IMG/VR virus record: IMGVR_UViG_3300031873_000003
Span: 29,791 to 93,790 of that record
Source: a virus
DNA: 64,000 bases
Strand: one strand, 5' to 3'
Part shown: in pieces, positions 16,783 through 64,000 of the stretch
Position numbering within the stretch: position 1 is the stretch's first letter
Layout: every line of letters starts with the position of its first letter
The notes under the pieces: model-generated
What the model was told of the DNA's origin: nothing
Seen by the model: the letters and a program-made list of their open reading frames with translations, nothing else
Database searches by the model: none
Translations under genes and position numbers: made by a program

Positions 16783-17339
16783 AAGCAACAGACATACCTG
16801 GATGGATGGACGAAAAAGAGATTGAGTGGCTCGCAGAACAGGCCAAGCACCACAATCTTATCGTTGAAATCGGAACGTGGCTTGGAAGGTCTGCCTATGC
16901 GATGGGAGAAGTAACGCCAGGAAAAATTATCACTATTGATAGTTTTAAGATGGAGGGTGTTCCTCCGAAAAGGTGGCCAACGGCAATAGAGGCACACAAG
17001 GAAATGGAAACCGATCCGGATTGGATTTATCGCCGTTGCCTGGATAACCTTGATGAACTTATAACAAGCGGAAAGGTAGAGGTTATTCGGGGAGATAGCC
17101 TTAAGGTTATCAAGGATTTGGATGGTATAAAAGGTCAGGTGGACATGGTATTTATTGATGGAAGTCATGATTATGTTTCTGTTCAAGAGGATATCTATAA
17201 ATATCGGCCTTTACTAAAAAAGGGTGGGTTACTGTGCGGGCACGACTTGGCTCACCAGGTAAAAAAGGCGGTTAGTCGCTTAGTTCCTGACTATAAGTTA
17301 GTTGCAGGAACTTTGATCTGGGCAGCAATAGAGAGTTAA
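16779..17339 (+). CDS. class I SAM-dependent methyltransferase (Methyltransf_24-like)
   Basis: VEIGTWLGRS, FIDGSHDY, GGLLCGHD. Confidence 0.85.
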   Translation: MKATDIPGWMDEKEIEWLAEQAKHHNLIVEIGTWLGRSAYAMGEVTPGKIITIDSFKMEGVPPKRWPTAIEAHKEMETDPDWIYRRCLDNLDELITSGKVEVIRGDSLKVIKDLDGIKGQVDMVFIDGSHDYVSVQEDIYKYRPLLKKGGLLCGHDLAHQVKKAVSRLVPDYKLVAGTLIWAAIES

Positions 17340-56424: not shown

Positions 56425-57605
56425 TCATACATAAAAACCTCCGTAATTATAAAACCTATCTATGTTTTCTATTCTGACAGTTCTGTTCTTTCCCTGATAA
56501 TCATTATAAGCAACTCTTGTTCCTAAATTCTGACATCCTTTAGAAACGAATGGTTGACCATCTATATAAATCAAATCCTTATTTTGAACCTTGTATTTTT
56601 GTTTTCTTATGGAAGGCTTAAAACCTATCCTGTTTAACTGTAAGGCTCTATTATTTCTTCTTTTTTGTGTCCACCTTACTTCTTTACATCTTTCTTGAAC
56701 TGTTCCGTTACCTATTACAAAAGCATCATTAGTATGAGATTTTTCAAGGTTTAGTTCGTTTCTTTTTACTTTAGTTTCATATCCATAAGTTACTGCTGTT
56801 GGATACAATTCCTGTGTTCTTCGGACTACTTCTTTCCTGATTATATTCATCATTGTTGCATCTTTGTATTGCTTATTTTTTGTCAAAAGATGATGCAAGT
56901 TCTTTTTATGTAGTCTTTCATGACATTTCTCATGTAAAAGAGCTAAATTATCAGGTTTATCAGTTCCTTTAGGTTTTGGAATTATATGATGCAATCTAAA
57001 ACCATTACCTTTACTTGATTCCTTGCCGCATAGCTGGCATTTTCCATGTTCTCTTGTTGTCACATAAGCCTTTACATTTTCATAACCATAAAGAATTCCT
57101 TGTTGATATTCTTTTCCCGATATTTCCGGATTTAAAATTTTCTGAATATCAAACTTTCCCGATTCCACACAAACTCTTGATACAGGAACATATTTAGAAA
57201 TCTTATCAAGAATCCCTATATGAGAATCAATCTTATGCTGTACTGATGGAGCAAATATGAATCCTTTTCTGTTGTCGAATCTTGGTTCTCTGTACCATAA
57301 TCTGTTTCTTCTATTTCTTCGATACATAGCTCTTTCTTCAATCTTGTCACTTACATCGGTTCTTAATTTTACTTCAATTCTTACTATTTCTCTCTTTTCC
57401 GTTCTTACTGATACACCTGCATATTCGTAGCCTGTATCTAAACTAAAAATAATCTCTTGTGTCTTTTCTTCACAGCTAAAATTAAGCTGGATAACAAACG
57501 GAAATCTTTTAATTACTGTAGCCTTACCCGATTTTACCATACGTTTGCTCTTAGCATAAGAACAAGGCATCAAAGGTTTACCTTCCTTTGAAAGGACAAG
57601 TACAA
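56425..57605 (-). CDS. iscB: IscB RNA-guided nuclease; true start near VLVLSKEGKPLMP, not 57780
   Basis: PLMP motif, RuvC-I LDTG, RRNRR bridge helix, RuvC-II E, HNH (HHII..N..H), RuvC-III HTNDA. Confidence 0.92.
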
Positions 57606-57865
57606 GTGCTTGTATTGAGCGTCCTACTTGTTGGACTTGATTCTCTTCGGGATTGATTAATACTGGCTGTATGCTCTTATCACTAAGAATTTCTTCTTTG
57701 TTTAGACAAGAACTCTCAGAGCAGAGAACTAGAGAAGTATTCTCTGGTGAATTCTTTAGCCTTATATTAATCTTCTGCATAGTTTCCTAAGCTCCCTAAT
57801 CAACTCTTTTCATCGTTGTACGTCACCGTACAAGCCCCTTGGTCTTTAGCCAAGGGGTAGTTGAC
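57606..57865 (-). ncRNA. IscB omega-RNA scaffold
   Basis: Structured region between the element end and the PLMP motif. Confidence 0.7.
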
Positions 57866-59609: not shown

Positions 59610-59683
59610 AATTCCTCCAGGCGGATTCTGTAAAAATCGACTATAAGCCGTGCTATACAGAATTTTTTCTGTATAATCAATTG

Positions 59684-60196
59684 TTATACAGCACGGGAAA
59701 TAACGGCAGATGAAGTCAGATGATGCCTCATCCGTGCCCCCAAAATCCTATCAGCATATTTTTCCAGCGTGCGACTATGCTGTTGACACGCCACATGGTT
59801 AAAATCTTTTCCGTCGGTGTGGATACGAAAATAACAGCGGCGAGACTTACAGAAAAGACATTGGTTATTAAAACGTATAACAACCGCATCGACCCGATGC
59901 GGAATAGACTTTTGCTTTTTCATATTACCTCCTTGCCCGCACAGGTCATGCGGAATGTTGGCGGTATCGGTGAACGGCCTGTCCACGCTCGGCCGTTGCG
60001 GTTGCAGCGGGTGGTTGAACGTCAGCACGCTCCACCACATCCGCCCGGTCAGCAGGACGCGCAGCCGTTCTCGCCACGTCAGCGCCCAGCAGGAAATCAC
60101 CATGCCGTCTTCCGTCTTGTGGACCGGCAGGGGCAGGTATTCCGGCTGGTCCTTCGCGTACACGCAGTTCTGTTCTGGGAACTCAATCGGTTTCAT
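59684..60196 (-). CDS. two cassette genes fused in frame through an attC site (second start at 59923)
   Basis: GGAGG RBS before both 60196 and 59923. Confidence 0.6.
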   Translation of the reverse strand: MKPIEFPEQNCVYAKDQPEYLPLPVHKTEDGMVISCWALTWRERLRVLLTGRMWWSVLTFNHPLQPQRPSVDRPFTDTANIPHDLCGQGGNMKKQKSIPHRVDAVVIRFNNQCLFCKSRRCYFRIHTDGKDFNHVACQQHSRTLEKYADRILGARMRHHLTSSAVISRAV

Positions 60197-60295
60197 TCTT
60201 CAACCTCCGTTGTTCTGTTTTCAACCCCGGTTGATGGCACCCGCCAACAACCGAATGCAGGCTACTCCGCTTCGCTCCGAGCCTGATTCGGAGCG

Positions 60296-60559
60296 TTATA
60301 CGGAAACATTAATTGGCGTTATCGCCAGCCCAACGTGGTTTTGCTGTAACCCCGAAAAGTCAGACATAACGTAGTTGATCCGATATTCGGGTATTGGAGA
60401 AGTTATTTTGTAGGCATCGTAGTCCCCATCCTCTATGGGAAGAAATCTAATTGTATCGCCTACTTGGAAATCACGGTCGTTTTTCCGGATCTCAAAGGTT
60501 TTCCCCCCTTCGAGAATGTGGCATAAATAACATTGTTTTATTTTTAGTTGATGCAGCAT
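60296..60559 (-). CDS. DUF3850 / ASCH-like protein
   Basis: HQLKI..G.KTFEIRKNDRDFQVGD. Confidence 0.8.
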   Translation of the reverse strand: MLHQLKIKQCYLCHILEGGKTFEIRKNDRDFQVGDTIRFLPIEDGDYDAYKITSPIPEYRINYVMSDFSGLQQNHVGLAITPINVSV

Positions 60560-60635
60560 ATGTACCTCCAATATAATTAAGAAAATGGATAACAAGTCAC
60601 TCCAGCGGACGGTCAAGGCGCCGCTGACCTCTACG

Positions 60636-60833
60636 TTATCTCCATACAATTCCAGTTCCACAACAGGTTCGACATGTTTCAAATTCTATTGTTGAGCTTG
60701 CCCATTGACCGGTAACTTGGGAATAAAACCCTTGTGACACTAATCCATTGCCCGAACATATCGGACAACGATGAGGCATTTCAGAAATAACCACCGGCTG
60801 CACTTGAGCCGGAATAGCTCTTTTAGATTTCAT
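60636..60833 (-). CDS. small DnaJ-type zinc-finger protein
   Basis: CPICSGNG..CRTCCGTG. Confidence 0.65.
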   Translation of the reverse strand: MKSKRAIPAQVQPVVISEMPHRCPICSGNGLVSQGFYSQVTGQWASSTIEFETCRTCCGTGIVWR

Positions 60834-60930
60834 GTTTTCTCCTTGTCCGGCAACGGTGTCGTATCACCAGCTATACAGATGTTTAGTATTGCTATACGGA
60901 TGAAATAGGTTCGGTGGAATCACATACGGC

Positions 60931-61128
60931 CTATTTCTGGTCATGTTCAGTTATCGGCCACCGGTACGGCCCATGAGTGATCGTAGCCCCGAGAATCCCC
61001 TTCTTGTGACCGAGCTTCGCCGTTTTCCACACCGGACCGCTTGGAGTTTGCACAATAGAGGAGACAGTGCATCTCTTGTGACGGTTTCTTGCCTCTCGCT
61101 CACGTTTCCCGGCTCGGTTTGCACTCAT
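60931..61128 (-). CDS. small basic hypothetical protein
   Basis: 65-aa ORF within the array. Confidence 0.4.
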   Translation of the reverse strand: MSANRAGKREREARNRHKRCTVSSIVQTPSGPVWKTAKLGHKKGILGATITHGPYRWPITEHDQK

Positions 61129-61229
61129 GTTTTAGCGGGTTACCTCATATACCTACTAATGACCAATTCCGTATAACAAGTCATTCGACCGGATGCCCAA
61201 AAGCGCCGGTCAATTCAATCGTTCTTTTA

Positions 61230-61352
61230 CGGTGGTCGGATGCTATCCCGACTGAGTGCTGCCGATTCTACGGCTCGTTTGCTCATCAGCAATAGTTATT
61301 CGGTTGAGCTTGCCCGAAAGGACTATGCGTGTCTGCTTTCCACGCCGCACCG
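61230..61352 (-). ncRNA. tRNA-like structured RNA filling an ORF-less cassette
   Basis: Closing stem CGGTG/CACCG; D-arm-like GCGTG-GAAAGCAGA-CACGC; T-arm-like GTCGG-GATAGCAT-CCGAC. Confidence 0.5.
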
Positions 61353-61404
61353 TAAAAGAACAAATCACTAGAGCCGAACTGTAACCAGTCGGCTCACTTC
61401 TGCG

Positions 61405-61611
61405 TTATCCTGCGCCCAATATGGCCTTTACTTTCGGCCCCCATTTCTGCATTACATCAAAACACTCAGACCCGAATGTGTGCGGGTCCTCTCCGTATAG
61501 CCTCAACGCCATAACCATAGCATCGGCTTCAAGTTCTCGAACATCAGAAACAAGATAAAATTCCTCTTCGACATTACTGCTCCCCGGCAACTTACGAATA
61601 TGAACATCCAT
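61405..61611 (-). CDS. cassette hypothetical protein
   Basis: GGAGGAG RBS; stop codon lies in the attC core. Confidence 0.55.
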   Translation of the reverse strand: MDVHIRKLPGSSNVEEEFYLVSDVRELEADAMVMALRLYGEDPHTFGSECFDVMQKWGPKVKAILGAG

Positions 61612-61684
61612 TTCACTCCTCCTCATAATGATGCGGATAACCGTTCACTCCAGCGGACGCCCAGGAGCGCCGCTGACCTCTGCG

Positions 61685-62182
61685 TTAGACGGTTTTCAAT
61701 ATAAGAGTGCATTCACCATGATACCATTTGCTAAAATGAAACGTTCCTACGGAAAACCCGAACGGGAACCCCACAATACTTCCAGATCCGTAGACCACCA
61801 AACCCCTTATCCCTCCATAATCGTTTATCATTTTCATAATTTTCTGTCGTTGAAATACCTTATTTGTCGGAAGGATGTAAGCTATCTCCGTAGCCAACTC
61901 GAAATTATGTTGCAACCAAAGCTCAAAACAAGAATAAGGAGGGTTTCCGATAATCCAATCAACTTTTTTATCGTAGTCAAAGAAGTTTCTACCAGCTTCA
62001 ATTTCGCACCAATCGGAGCCTTCAGGCAGGTGTCGATAAAATGCCCCATCGCCTCGACAAGGATCAAGGCAAAGACCGGATGGCTGTAACCATTGAATGA
62101 TCTCCTGTGCAACATTGTCTGGTGTGTAAACAATGTCTTTCTCAAGCGGTGGTCTCTCTATGAGTTCTAATTGATGAATCAT
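61685..62182 (-). CDS. N6-adenine DNA methyltransferase-like protein
   Basis: YTP, LDPCRGDG, IIGNPPYS. Confidence 0.8.
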   Translation of the reverse strand: MIHQLELIERPPLEKDIVYTPDNVAQEIIQWLQPSGLCLDPCRGDGAFYRHLPEGSDWCEIEAGRNFFDYDKKVDWIIGNPPYSCFELWLQHNFELATEIAYILPTNKVFQRQKIMKMINDYGGIRGLVVYGSGSIVGFPFGFSVGTFHFSKWYHGECTLILKTV

Positions 62183-62250
62183 AAAAAATAGCGTCTAACA
62201 AGGCGCTCCACCGGATTGCCAATAAACCTGGCAACCGGTGAGCTTAGTCG

Positions 62251-62490
62251 TTATGCGACTTCAATTGGCTCTGGGACTGGAAATGCTACAAATTTCGATG
62301 AAATCCCATGTCCACAAACTACTTCATATACTCTTGTTTCACCCTTCATTTTTGTCAGTGAACTGCAAACAATCAAGGTTCCTTCTCCTCCTTCTACTCC
62401 TTGAATACGCCATGGAACTATATATTCTTTTCCATTACAATCACAACCCGTTTTCTTACAAATACTGCATCGTGTTATTCGCTCTCTCAT
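62251..62490 (-). CDS. cassette hypothetical protein
   Basis: GGAGG RBS; stop codon lies in the attC core. Confidence 0.55.
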   Translation of the reverse strand: MRERITRCSICKKTGCDCNGKEYIVPWRIQGVEGGEGTLIVCSSLTKMKGETRVYEVVCGHGISSKFVAFPVPEPIEVA

Positions 62491-62571
62491 CTTTCACCTC
62501 CAATTATAAATTAGAAAATCGCATAACAAATCATTCGACCGGACGCTCAAGGGCGCCGGTCAACTTAGTCG

Positions 62572-62748
62572 TTATGCTTCTTCCCAAACCACCCTACCGT
62601 CAAAACTACCGTCTTTGTGTAATCTGATCACAGTTACGGAAACCCCGATATCCATATCATCACAGAAAACATCTATGACTTGGCCAATCTTTAGGTTCTC
62701 TGGCATCCCTTTATCTACCAATTCACATAAAAACATCTCGCTAATCAT
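62572..62748 (-). CDS. cassette hypothetical protein (58 aa, not in the ORF track)
   Basis: AAGGA RBS; MISEMFLCEL...VVWEEA*; stop codon lies in the attC core. Confidence 0.55.
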   Translation of the reverse strand: MISEMFLCELVDKGMPENLKIGQVIDVFCDDMDIGVSVTVIRLHKDGSFDGRVVWEEA

Positions 62749-62817
62749 AACAAAATCCTTAATTTACAGCATAACCAATCACTCCAGCGGACGGTCAAGG
62801 CGCCGCTTAGTTTTACG

Positions 62818-63135
62818 TTATACCCCAACAAAATCCTCACACGTGTCAGCCCTATCAAAAACTTTTCGATGTGCTAGTTTTAGTTTTTCCCAGAAAGTTT
62901 TCCTACCAAATTCGTTTTTTTCCTGGGCTGTTACAAATTCTTGAGGATAGATAGAAAAAATATGCTCTCCCCCTTTTTCCAATATCCAATGTCCCATAGG
63001 ATTCCCAGACTGATCAACCCCTGGATTACACCGGATAGTGTTTTTGGAAATATTCACCTTGCAATGTAAACAATCCTTACATGATTTGAACCTCCCCACG
63101 GCTAAAGCCGGGGGATTCCTGTTAATTAAGGACAT
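62818..63135 (-). CDS. Cys-containing hypothetical protein; N-terminus supplied by the IS right end
   Basis: CKDCLHC; stop codon lies in the attC core. Confidence 0.45.
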   Translation of the reverse strand: MSLINRNPPALAVGRFKSCKDCLHCKVNISKNTIRCNPGVDQSGNPMGHWILEKGGEHIFSIYPQEFVTAQEKNEFGRKTFWEKLKLAHRKVFDRADTCEDFVGV

Positions 63136-63966
63136 TGCTGACCTCCTTGTGGCTCGTTCCAAGCCCGAAATTAAGAATTACTTGGGCAGCATTAATGTCT
63201 CTGTCCAAGATGGAGCCACACTCCTTACATTCCCAATTTCGTACCTTAAGCCCACTCAATCCTGTAGGTCCAGTTAAGTTACTTGTTCTCATTGTTTCCT
63301 GCTAAAGCATGGACCATGCCGTCTATCAGTGCTTGTAATTCGCACAATGTAGCGGTTCCCTTCATGCGATTAGCACGATGGCTGAGAACCCATACATTGC
63401 CTTTTACATACCCCTTTGTAGGGATTATCCTGTCCAAAGACGGACTGTTCGGGGAAGGTTTATTTTTTCCTACAATAAGAGGCAAACGAAGAACGGGGCA
63501 CATTGTGGGAATAACTATGTCCGAAACAGACAAGTCAAAGGGCAAGTGCAATTCTCTTGCTCTGCGTCTTGCATGTTTCCACAATCCATATTCTGGCGTT
63601 CCACACTTGCCGTGTAAAGTAACTCTCGTTTTGAATTTCTCGTGACTCATACAGCCACAACTCAGAGTTGCCTTTCTGCGTAGGTTGCCGCCAGAAGTCC
63701 TAGTTTCTTTTCCACAATCGCAACGACACCGCCAACGAGCTTGACCATCGGACAAATTCATATCACGGGCTAAGACGACAAGACGCCCAAACCGCTGACC
63801 CGTCAAATCTTTCAGACTACTCATATTGCGTTTTTCCTCCGTCCCTAGCATTGAGTTCGATTTTCCTCAAGCCCCAGTTGTAGATAGATGCCAAGTGGAC
63901 AAGCCAACGAGACAGGTCAACTTCTTGTCCCTTGGTCAGCTTGAGTTTGAGGGTTCGGACGATCAC
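63086..63966 (-). pseudogene. tnpB: tnpB remnant: N-terminal (63817..63966) and C-terminal (63122..63277) fragments plus IS right end, flanking an HNH gene
   Basis: VIVRTLKLKLTKGQE..WL..L.SIYNWGLRKIEL and LTGPTGLSGLKVRNWECKECGSILDRDINAAQVIL; right end GGAATCCCCCGGCTTTAGCCGTGGGGAGGTTCAA. Confidence 0.8.
63279..63824 (-). CDS. HNH-type homing endonuclease
   Basis: DLTGQRFGRLVV..WRCRCDCG..SCGC; SLDRIIPTKGYVKGNVWVLSHRANRMKG. Confidence 0.85.
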   Translation of the reverse strand: MSSLKDLTGQRFGRLVVLARDMNLSDGQARWRCRCDCGKETRTSGGNLRRKATLSCGCMSHEKFKTRVTLHGKCGTPEYGLWKHARRRARELHLPFDLSVSDIVIPTMCPVLRLPLIVGKNKPSPNSPSLDRIIPTKGYVKGNVWVLSHRANRMKGTATLCELQALIDGMVHALAGNNENK

Positions 63967-64000
63967 TTCTTTCGTCTCTTCTCGTTGAGTTGCTTCATCC

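Follow-up and report, generated by a model that had tools for sequence, protein, structure and literature searches.

Long attC sites that carry putative start signals of the gene behind them in a cassette array of an uncultured phage

The cassette array and its surroundings

The window analysed here is a stretch of 64,000 nucleotides that makes up the right-hand 64 kb of a 93,790-nt IMG/VR virus record (IMGVR_UViG_3300031873_000003) rated 100% complete by CheckV. Structural genes occupy its + strand up to about 55 kb, and small minus-strand ORFs lie at 59.6-62.9 kb, the spacers between them being imperfect palindromes that start with ..TAAC and finish with GTTA.. (Table 1). Ten attC sites are clustered at 59875-62826, with a second cluster elsewhere in the genome, and the locus is thus a CALIN, that is, at least two clustered attC sites with no integrase nearby. 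In the 93.8-kb record we found no integron integrase, other tyrosine recombinase, serine recombinase or Y1 transposase; PF00589 was unmatched over its whole length, and the array does not belong to a complete integron with adjacent intI and attI. The second attC cluster, at positions 16955-17264 of the genome (L001), is about 12.5 kb before the window and on the opposite genome strand. Its genes are on + and its attC top-strand geometry is on -, which places the genes on the attC bottom strand as in the window array. Both phage arrays are therefore wholly inverted relative to the usual strand relation between attC and ORF.

Table 1. Position of the attC sites, cassettes and reading frames of the array (window coordinates)
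Feature	Position	Strand	Remarks
attC A	62770-62826	-	short type
attC B	62520-62576	-	short type
attC C	62192-62256	-	cassette with DNA methyltransferase-like gene 61685-62182
attC D	61634-61690	-	short type
attC E	61355-61410	-	short type
attC F	61170-61225	-	short type
Degenerate J-type attC	60785 to ~60850	-	SD 60839-60844, ATG 60831-60833, 3' arm and box GTTATTT 60785-60791 retained
P_J, 65 aa	60636-60833	-	CxxCxGxG-like motifs; stop TAA within box of next attC
attC G	60587-60641	-	short type; cassette with DUF3850 gene 60296-60562
Cassette H, 338 nt	59958-60295	-	attC H 60242-60301 (with boxes), 45-nt leader, ORF from 60196 without stop
Read-through ORF, 170 aa	59684-60196	-	H core + 13 residues from attC I + entire P_I
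attC site I, 89 nt	59875-59963	- (gene strand = attC bottom strand)	ssDNA minimum-energy fold -15.9 kcal/mol
R' box of site I	59957-59963	-	crossover AA|C between 59958 and 59957 (G|TT on +); H/I cassette junction
5' arm of site I	59944-59953	-	CCGCATGACC; non-coding for P_I; pairs with 59884-59894
Shine-Dalgarno AAGGAGG	59928-59934	-	in site I loop, 5 nt before ATG
Putative P_I start codon	59921-59923	-	within attC loop; next P_I Met not before residue 65
3' arm of site I	59884-59894	-	GGTC-G-ATGCGG; codons 10-14 (RVDAV) of P_I
R'' box of site I	59875-59881	-	GTTATAC; GTT = Val-15; module homology between cassettes stops here
P_I, 79-aa Cys/His-rich protein	59684-59923	-	stop TAA 59686-59684 = last three cassette bases
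Cassette I, 274 nt	59684-59957	-	own attC then own gene; from mapped limits of cassettes H and J

Several other features of the region are recorded here. The product of the methyltransferase-like cassette (165 aa) bears an NPPY motif and matches PHROG 799 (E = 1e-25); orphan methyltransferases have previously been described as cargo of phage CALINs. Between attC E and attC F (61226-61354, -) there is a cassette without an ORF, the predicted RNA of which (131 nt) folds into a multi-stem structure closed by an 8-bp terminal helix (-45.5 kcal/mol; z = -3.4); it had zero matches in Rfam even at E <= 1, and on this predicted fold it is a candidate for a small structured RNA gene. A hammerhead-like CTGATGAG within it received no support from Rfam. 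At the array terminus (59620-59690, -; array end 59680-59686) a TAA|C box is followed by palindromic sequence that is not attC, with two perfect 8-bp inverted repeats (CTGTATAA..TTATACAG and ATTCTGTA..TACAGAAT); the array may first have been inserted at this point, or the terminus may be what is left of an attI-like site. A promoter or operator shared by the array end and the region upstream of site J (CTGTATAGC) was considered and dropped, the motif not being enriched. The low-GC stretch (35%) that immediately follows the small-gene region downstream encodes an IscB-type nuclease of 451 aa with RRXRR and HNH domains (56425-57865, -) together with its HEARO/omega RNA (RF02033, 108 bits), the sole Rfam match over the window; Rfam contains no attC family. 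On the other side, within 63122-63999 (-), lie remnants of a TnpB gene: an HTH_OrfB_IS605 piece from its N-terminus at 63817-63999 and a Cas12f1-like TNB piece from its C-terminus at 63122-63292. The ORF flanked by the two pieces (63279-63851, 190 aa) is without a Pfam match, and the TnpB middle thus seems to have been replaced.

Structure of the long attC sites and limits of the cassettes

As a yardstick we took the aadA1 attC of R100 (L003:1201-1260), which was matched in more than 1,900 plasmids at 99% identity or more and is placed in R100 directly 3' of aadA1 on the same strand. When folded as single-stranded DNA, its bottom strand displayed in the 3' arm an unpaired T 15 nt and an unpaired G 8 nt before the GTT. 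The identical script was applied to 12 intact sites of the I/J type (site I of the window plus eleven from other contigs), and in 11 of the 12 the minimum-energy structure of the gene strand was a common bulged hairpin made, from the outside in, of the box pair, a 6-bp stem, a bulge, 6 bp, a T bulge, 5 bp and a loop of 33-34 nt. The T bulge is at 15 nt, and the bulge 8 nt before GTT is G in I-type sites and C or A in J-type sites. An AAC...GTT box pair is present in 11 of these module sites (the 3' box of L093 is ATT), as TAAC...GTTA in most and as CAAC...GTTA in site I. Sites of this subfamily are 81-89 nt long and have a 33-34-nt loop, compared with 3-16 nt for the array's short types; the short sites A-G carry the same T at 15 nt and compensatory changes in five of eight stem pairs. 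With this bulge geometry on the gene strand, the sites are structurally attC; their genes, in contrast to aadA1, occupy the attC bottom strand, and each attC therefore precedes its own gene.

Site I is made of a 5' box CGCCAAC, the 5' arm, a 34-nt loop, the 3' arm and a 3' box GTTATAC, with single-base bulges at T (59897) and G (59890), 15 and 8 nt before GTT, and it scored 81 bits with covariance model R1. This confirms it as a genuine integron-type attC of the long subfamily. The initial annotation had noticed a Shine-Dalgarno sequence and a start at 59923 within it, and both are there: GGAGGTAATATG on the minus strand, with ATG 59923-59921, stands inside the imperfect palindrome 59875-59963. 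The loop contains AAGGAGG, the ATG and eight codons, and codons 9-16 are encoded by the 3' arm and the box. A GGAGG core with 5-nt spacing is conserved in all 12 aligned sites, and the leading AA in 11. Site J is the partial site that had been described at 60785 with a start at 60833, and it presents AGGAGAAAACATG with ATG 60833-60831. The window copy, which scored 47 bits with the covariance model, misses the 5' box and the 5' arm and has AAGGAG as its Shine-Dalgarno sequence; an intact version precedes the same gene in L095 and L096. As had also been noted, one attC arm gives the two proteins similar N-termini, MKKQKSIPHRVDAVVI and MKSKRAIPAQVQPVVI being identical in 8 of 16 residues.

Across the 12 module sites 97.6% of the cells in the two arms were paired, and four pairs were changed on both sides between the I and J types. 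A local hairpin in the coding arm and one in the 5' arm are competing alternatives to the long-range stem, to which two of the four doubly changed pairs are restricted. Since the arms covary even though one of them is coding, the constraint is on DNA structure and not on the peptide.

The limits of the mobile units were read from copies in other contexts. A copy of cassette H in L007 is 95% identical to that of the window, and the homology runs from AAC|GCTCCG, in the 5' box upstream of H, exactly to GCCGCCAA|C, in the 5' box of site I, with unrelated flanks in the two contigs. The P_J cassette was found in three contexts (window, L095 and L096). Its 5' limit is the AA|C of its own module site in L095 and L096, and its 3' limit is TAA|C in all three, a different attC type coming next in each. 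Thus, cassettes H and P_J have exact AA|C limits on the gene strand in at least three contexts each. These results show that the mobile unit is an attC plus the gene downstream. The cut falls at AA|C in the gene strand, or G|TT when read on the opposite one, which is the position predicted for a gene strand that acts as the recombined bottom strand. Because these limits fall at the 5' edge of the hairpin, the attC and the gene whose start it embeds are one cassette, and the plan in the direction of the gene is C, attC, a leader in some, ORF and TAA, with crossovers at AA|C. The phage array departs from the canonical arrangement, in which the attC follows the 3' end of an ORF encoded on its top strand. 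The initial annotation had assigned the embedded start to the next gene; the AA|C boundaries and the bottom-strand orientation of the genes place site, start and that gene in one cassette, so that the start is not that of a next cassette.

It could be proposed that the hairpins are not integrase substrates at all, and that they are either connectors shuffled by homologous or illegitimate recombination, as documented for the PeSLs of T4-type phages (PMC2839356), or RNA translational operators. In fact, the phage has no recombinase, the hairpin is on the mRNA strand with the Shine-Dalgarno sequence and AUG in its loop, the alternative local hairpins also covary, and the module was found only in phage or metagenome DNA. 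We nevertheless consider this explanation unlikely: homologous exchange gives no account of the precise AA|C break points, which are kept also between neighbouring hairpins of unrelated types, the boxes and bulge spacing are those of the aadA1 attC base for base, and phage attC sites have been proven to be IntI1 substrates. Moreover, promoter-like sites, which PeSLs have, are absent from the hairpins: the array contains 4 such sites against 6.4 expected, and the hairpins zero. The RNA-operator part of the proposal is compatible with inverted attC-first cassettes.

Distribution of the start module and the open frame of cassette H

We searched for the module with a pattern of 23 fixed bases taken from the Shine-Dalgarno sequence, the ATG, ATTCCG and part of the 3' arm, the AAC box and 5' arm not being required. 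The pattern matched 12 metagenome and 3 viral loci which, together with the two window copies, represent 14 distinct contexts; the covariance model then added further sites within the pattern-matched loci. An AAC box and a complementary 5' arm were found upstream in 12 of the 14 contexts, the exceptions being window site J and L094. The coincidence of start signals and palindrome is therefore not due to chance. The module consensus is MKSKRAIPAQVQPVV in the J-type and MK.K..IPH.VDAVV in the I-type. In viral and metagenome contigs at least 13 ORF bodies of 64-127 aa, unrelated to one another, carry it as an in-frame fusion. None of these bodies has a name in Pfam or PHROGs, and the frame opened in the site runs on for 48 to 111 further codons as the gene; only in L094 is the frame after the module short (22 aa). 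The GTT of the box is in frame, as a Val codon, in every module copy, and the sequences diverge after GTTA. On the basis of these sequences, the earlier suggestion that the attC doubles as a portable translation-start module, with a Shine-Dalgarno sequence, ATG and 15 codons in frame on at least 13 unrelated bodies, appears sound, and the module ATG is probably the start actually used.

The body shared by L087 and L004 illustrates how the module relates to the genes. Most of its 80 viral homologs match it from residue 13-19 onwards, past the module; about 20 homologs clearly begin M..RP.IVCLCGS, have their own ribosome-binding site and lack the hairpin. The native ATG of L004 and L100 comes immediately after GTT. 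At the sequence level, these comparisons show that the module has been added to a gene family whose usual start lies 3-5 residues ahead of the junction. P_I had no family match in Pfam or PHROGs; a further search yielded two relatives only, and peptide patterns detected none in viral contigs. One of the proteins compared with it, P0002, is identical to P_I in 58 of 63 residues of the body and in 5 of the first 16 residues, its module being of the J-type; this comparison, made on protein sequences, supports the view that the P_I body occurs with both I-type and J-type modules and would have changed partner. Similarly, P0005 is the P_J body with a third module variant. This variant (MEKKAIEGQVKPVV / MKKKDIHGQVEPVV; L096:2158-2242 and P0005) keeps the J-type outer arms and has lost the inner 5-bp stem.

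Two other contigs are worth describing. L101 (1232-1321) has a long attC with arms of the short CAGCGG/CCGCTG type and GGAGG plus ATG in the loop, and the embedded-start layout therefore arose more than once. In L097 (173-511) the N-terminus resembles that of a signal peptide or lipoprotein, and an I-type module supplies its charged head (MKTKRFIPHLVDAVVICFFILAFSPLC...). The module pattern had no true match in 185,579 bacterial and archaeal species genomes, which thus gave no donor integron; the sole match (L102) was a chance lipoprotein signal peptide from which the arms are absent.

The recurrence of MK.K..IP..V..VV, and its position in L097 as the charged head of a signal-peptide-like sequence, could be taken to mean that the shared N-terminus is a functional targeting or stabilising peptide conserved as protein, with the palindrome incidental. 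We regard this as extremely improbable, because changes in the coding arm are matched by changes in a non-coding arm that precedes the Shine-Dalgarno sequence, residues 3, 6, 9, 10, 12 and 13 vary freely between types while pairing is retained, and most homologs of the gene family with the L087 body are without the peptide.

The gene at 60196 had been said to lack a stop and to read in frame through the site, and indeed the ORF 60196-59684 (170 aa) joins the 79-aa ORF. The H ORF reaches the end of its cassette (GCC AA|C) still open. What follows depends on the context: in L007 the H frame continues for 20 codons through another attC, and in L008, with no attC downstream, it meets a stop three codons on. 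The H protein family is widespread in phages (viral contigs gave 99 confirmed matches, the best 80 loci being retained), and close homologs in the protein database displayed at least seven further tails of 13-26 residues, all different, after ...TDTAN. Since the tails differ in at least eight contexts and diverge right after ...TDTAN, the C-terminus of H is set by its neighbour.

In contrast to the open frame of the window copy, I- and J-type sites usually close every incoming frame 0-14 codons from the box, before or just past the ATG. Other I-type sites present GGT TAA ATG to the H frame, and the window copy alone has GGT AAT ATG. No second 170-aa H-P_I fusion was found among the protein-database homologs. 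Of the proposal that recombination could create fusion proteins, the part that stands is the variation of the H tail with context; a fusion as designed output does not fit sites that otherwise stop the frames. On the sequences available, we read the H-P_I fusion as a tolerated accident, a by-product, and predict that both the 170-aa and the 79-aa products are made.

These data also bear on ordinary polarity, according to which each gene is followed by its attC, the site starts the gene of the next cassette and the fusion is part of the function. The minus-strand order does resemble gene-attC-gene, stops fall in the first box as in ordinary cassettes, and the 170-aa fused frame exists. However, the shared units run from the 5' box of the upstream hairpin to the 5' box of the downstream one, the bulges show that the genes are on the bottom strand, module and downstream body move together (L087/L004 and L095/L096), and the other I/J sites stop all incoming frames, with no further example of the 170-aa fusion. 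We believe, therefore, that ordinary polarity is very unlikely here, and that inverted attC-first cassettes, in which the start belongs to the cassette's own gene, are probably the explanation of the array.

Proposed mechanism and comparison with known systems

In the mechanism that we propose, the variable terminal loop of a long attC would have grown to 33-34 nt, taking in a Shine-Dalgarno sequence, a 5-nt spacer, an ATG and eight codons. As the phage has no recombinase, the enzyme is likely a host integron integrase, which would cut the folded gene (bottom) strand at AA|C and move whole cassettes. In this respect, attC sites of virulent phages were recombined by IntI1, bottom strands being more active than top strands (Qi et al. 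2023, PMC9892861), and cassette insertion outside att sites has been described (Loot et al.). Modules might swap between gene bodies if crossover occasionally took place at the second box (G|TT in GTT-A), comparable with top-strand recombination; with GTT always read as a codon, the frame would be preserved. Stop-less cassette H takes its tail from whatever adjoins downstream, and window site I has lost the TAA that usually stands directly before the ATG, giving the 170-aa frame. We put forward only tentatively, and with some doubt, the broader idea that uncultured phages keep their own cassette pool of reversed polarity, in which attC is at once a DNA recombination site and an mRNA initiation region and both boxes are crossover points (AA|C for cassettes, G|TT for module swap). 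If true, it would be a natural modular system giving any captured ORF a working start, and the GTT|ATG junctions at native starts (L004 and L100) would be fossils of the attachment of an attC to a gene.

Integron cassettes are usually seen as promoterless genes followed by a recombination site, and to our knowledge the question of how an attC becomes attached to a gene (cassette genesis) has not been solved. In the phage cassettes the site comes first, and one widespread subfamily of sites would supply a ribosome site, a start codon and a 15-residue leader; its junctions between module and captured gene can be read base by base in many independent cases and thus constitute a data set for cassette genesis. 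In addition, these sites are an example of one sequence under a joint constraint of DNA structure and coding, and offer a possible account of how phages render newly captured ORFs translatable at once. Cassette H indicates that a cassette may be stop-less, the end of the protein then depending on the neighbour.

Phage CALINs, start signals in attI1 and short ORFs inside attC are already published, and our literature search found no paper on phage cassettes with a bottom-strand gene or on an attC encoding the start and leader of its own gene. The phage CALINs described by Qi, Rajabal, Ghaly, Tetu and Gillings (2023, PMC9892861) are similar to the array studied here in that an attC array lies between small accessory genes of a lytic-type phage with no intI, a DNA methyltransferase-like gene is among the cassettes, and there the sites were shown to be IntI1 substrates. 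They differ in that the arrays were described with the typical bacterial cassette structure, with no mention of bottom-strand genes or of an embedded ribosome-binding site and start. With the aadA1 attC, the phage sites share the AAC/GTT boxes, the imperfect palindrome, T and G at 15 and 8 nt, a variable terminal loop and the G|TT crossover. In aadA1, however, the gene is on the top strand, the attC comes after it and has a 3-nt loop, and a stop codon is beside the site, whereas in the I/J sites the gene is on the bottom strand, the attC comes before it, and the loop of 33-34 nt contains a Shine-Dalgarno sequence, an ATG and codons.

Translation signals inside an integron site, with a frame completed by the adjacent cassette, are also known from ORF-11, ORF-17 and ORF-18 of attI1 and from short ORFs within attC (Hanau-Bercot 2002; Jacquier et al. 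2009; reviewed in PMC8876359). Those of the ORF-11 type are short helper ORFs that end at or before the cassette gene and aid the next cassette by coupling or re-initiation. The phage module does not end there but would provide the protein of its own cassette with the start itself and the initial 15-16 residues. PeSL cassettes of T4-type phages (Arbiol et al. 2010, PMC2839356) are alike in that repeated stem-loops between small non-essential genes bound swappable modules; PeSLs, though, are a strong early promoter plus a terminator and recombine by homology, in contrast to the attC boxes and bulges, the lack of a promoter and the exact AA|C break points of the phage sites. Finally, the inverted cassettes of sedentary chromosomal integrons (toxin-antitoxin cassettes; PMC13108822) also have their ORFs on the unusual strand relative to attC. 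In bacteria they are a minority and have their own promoters, whereas the phage arrays are wholly inverted and some of their attC sites appear to have absorbed the translation start.
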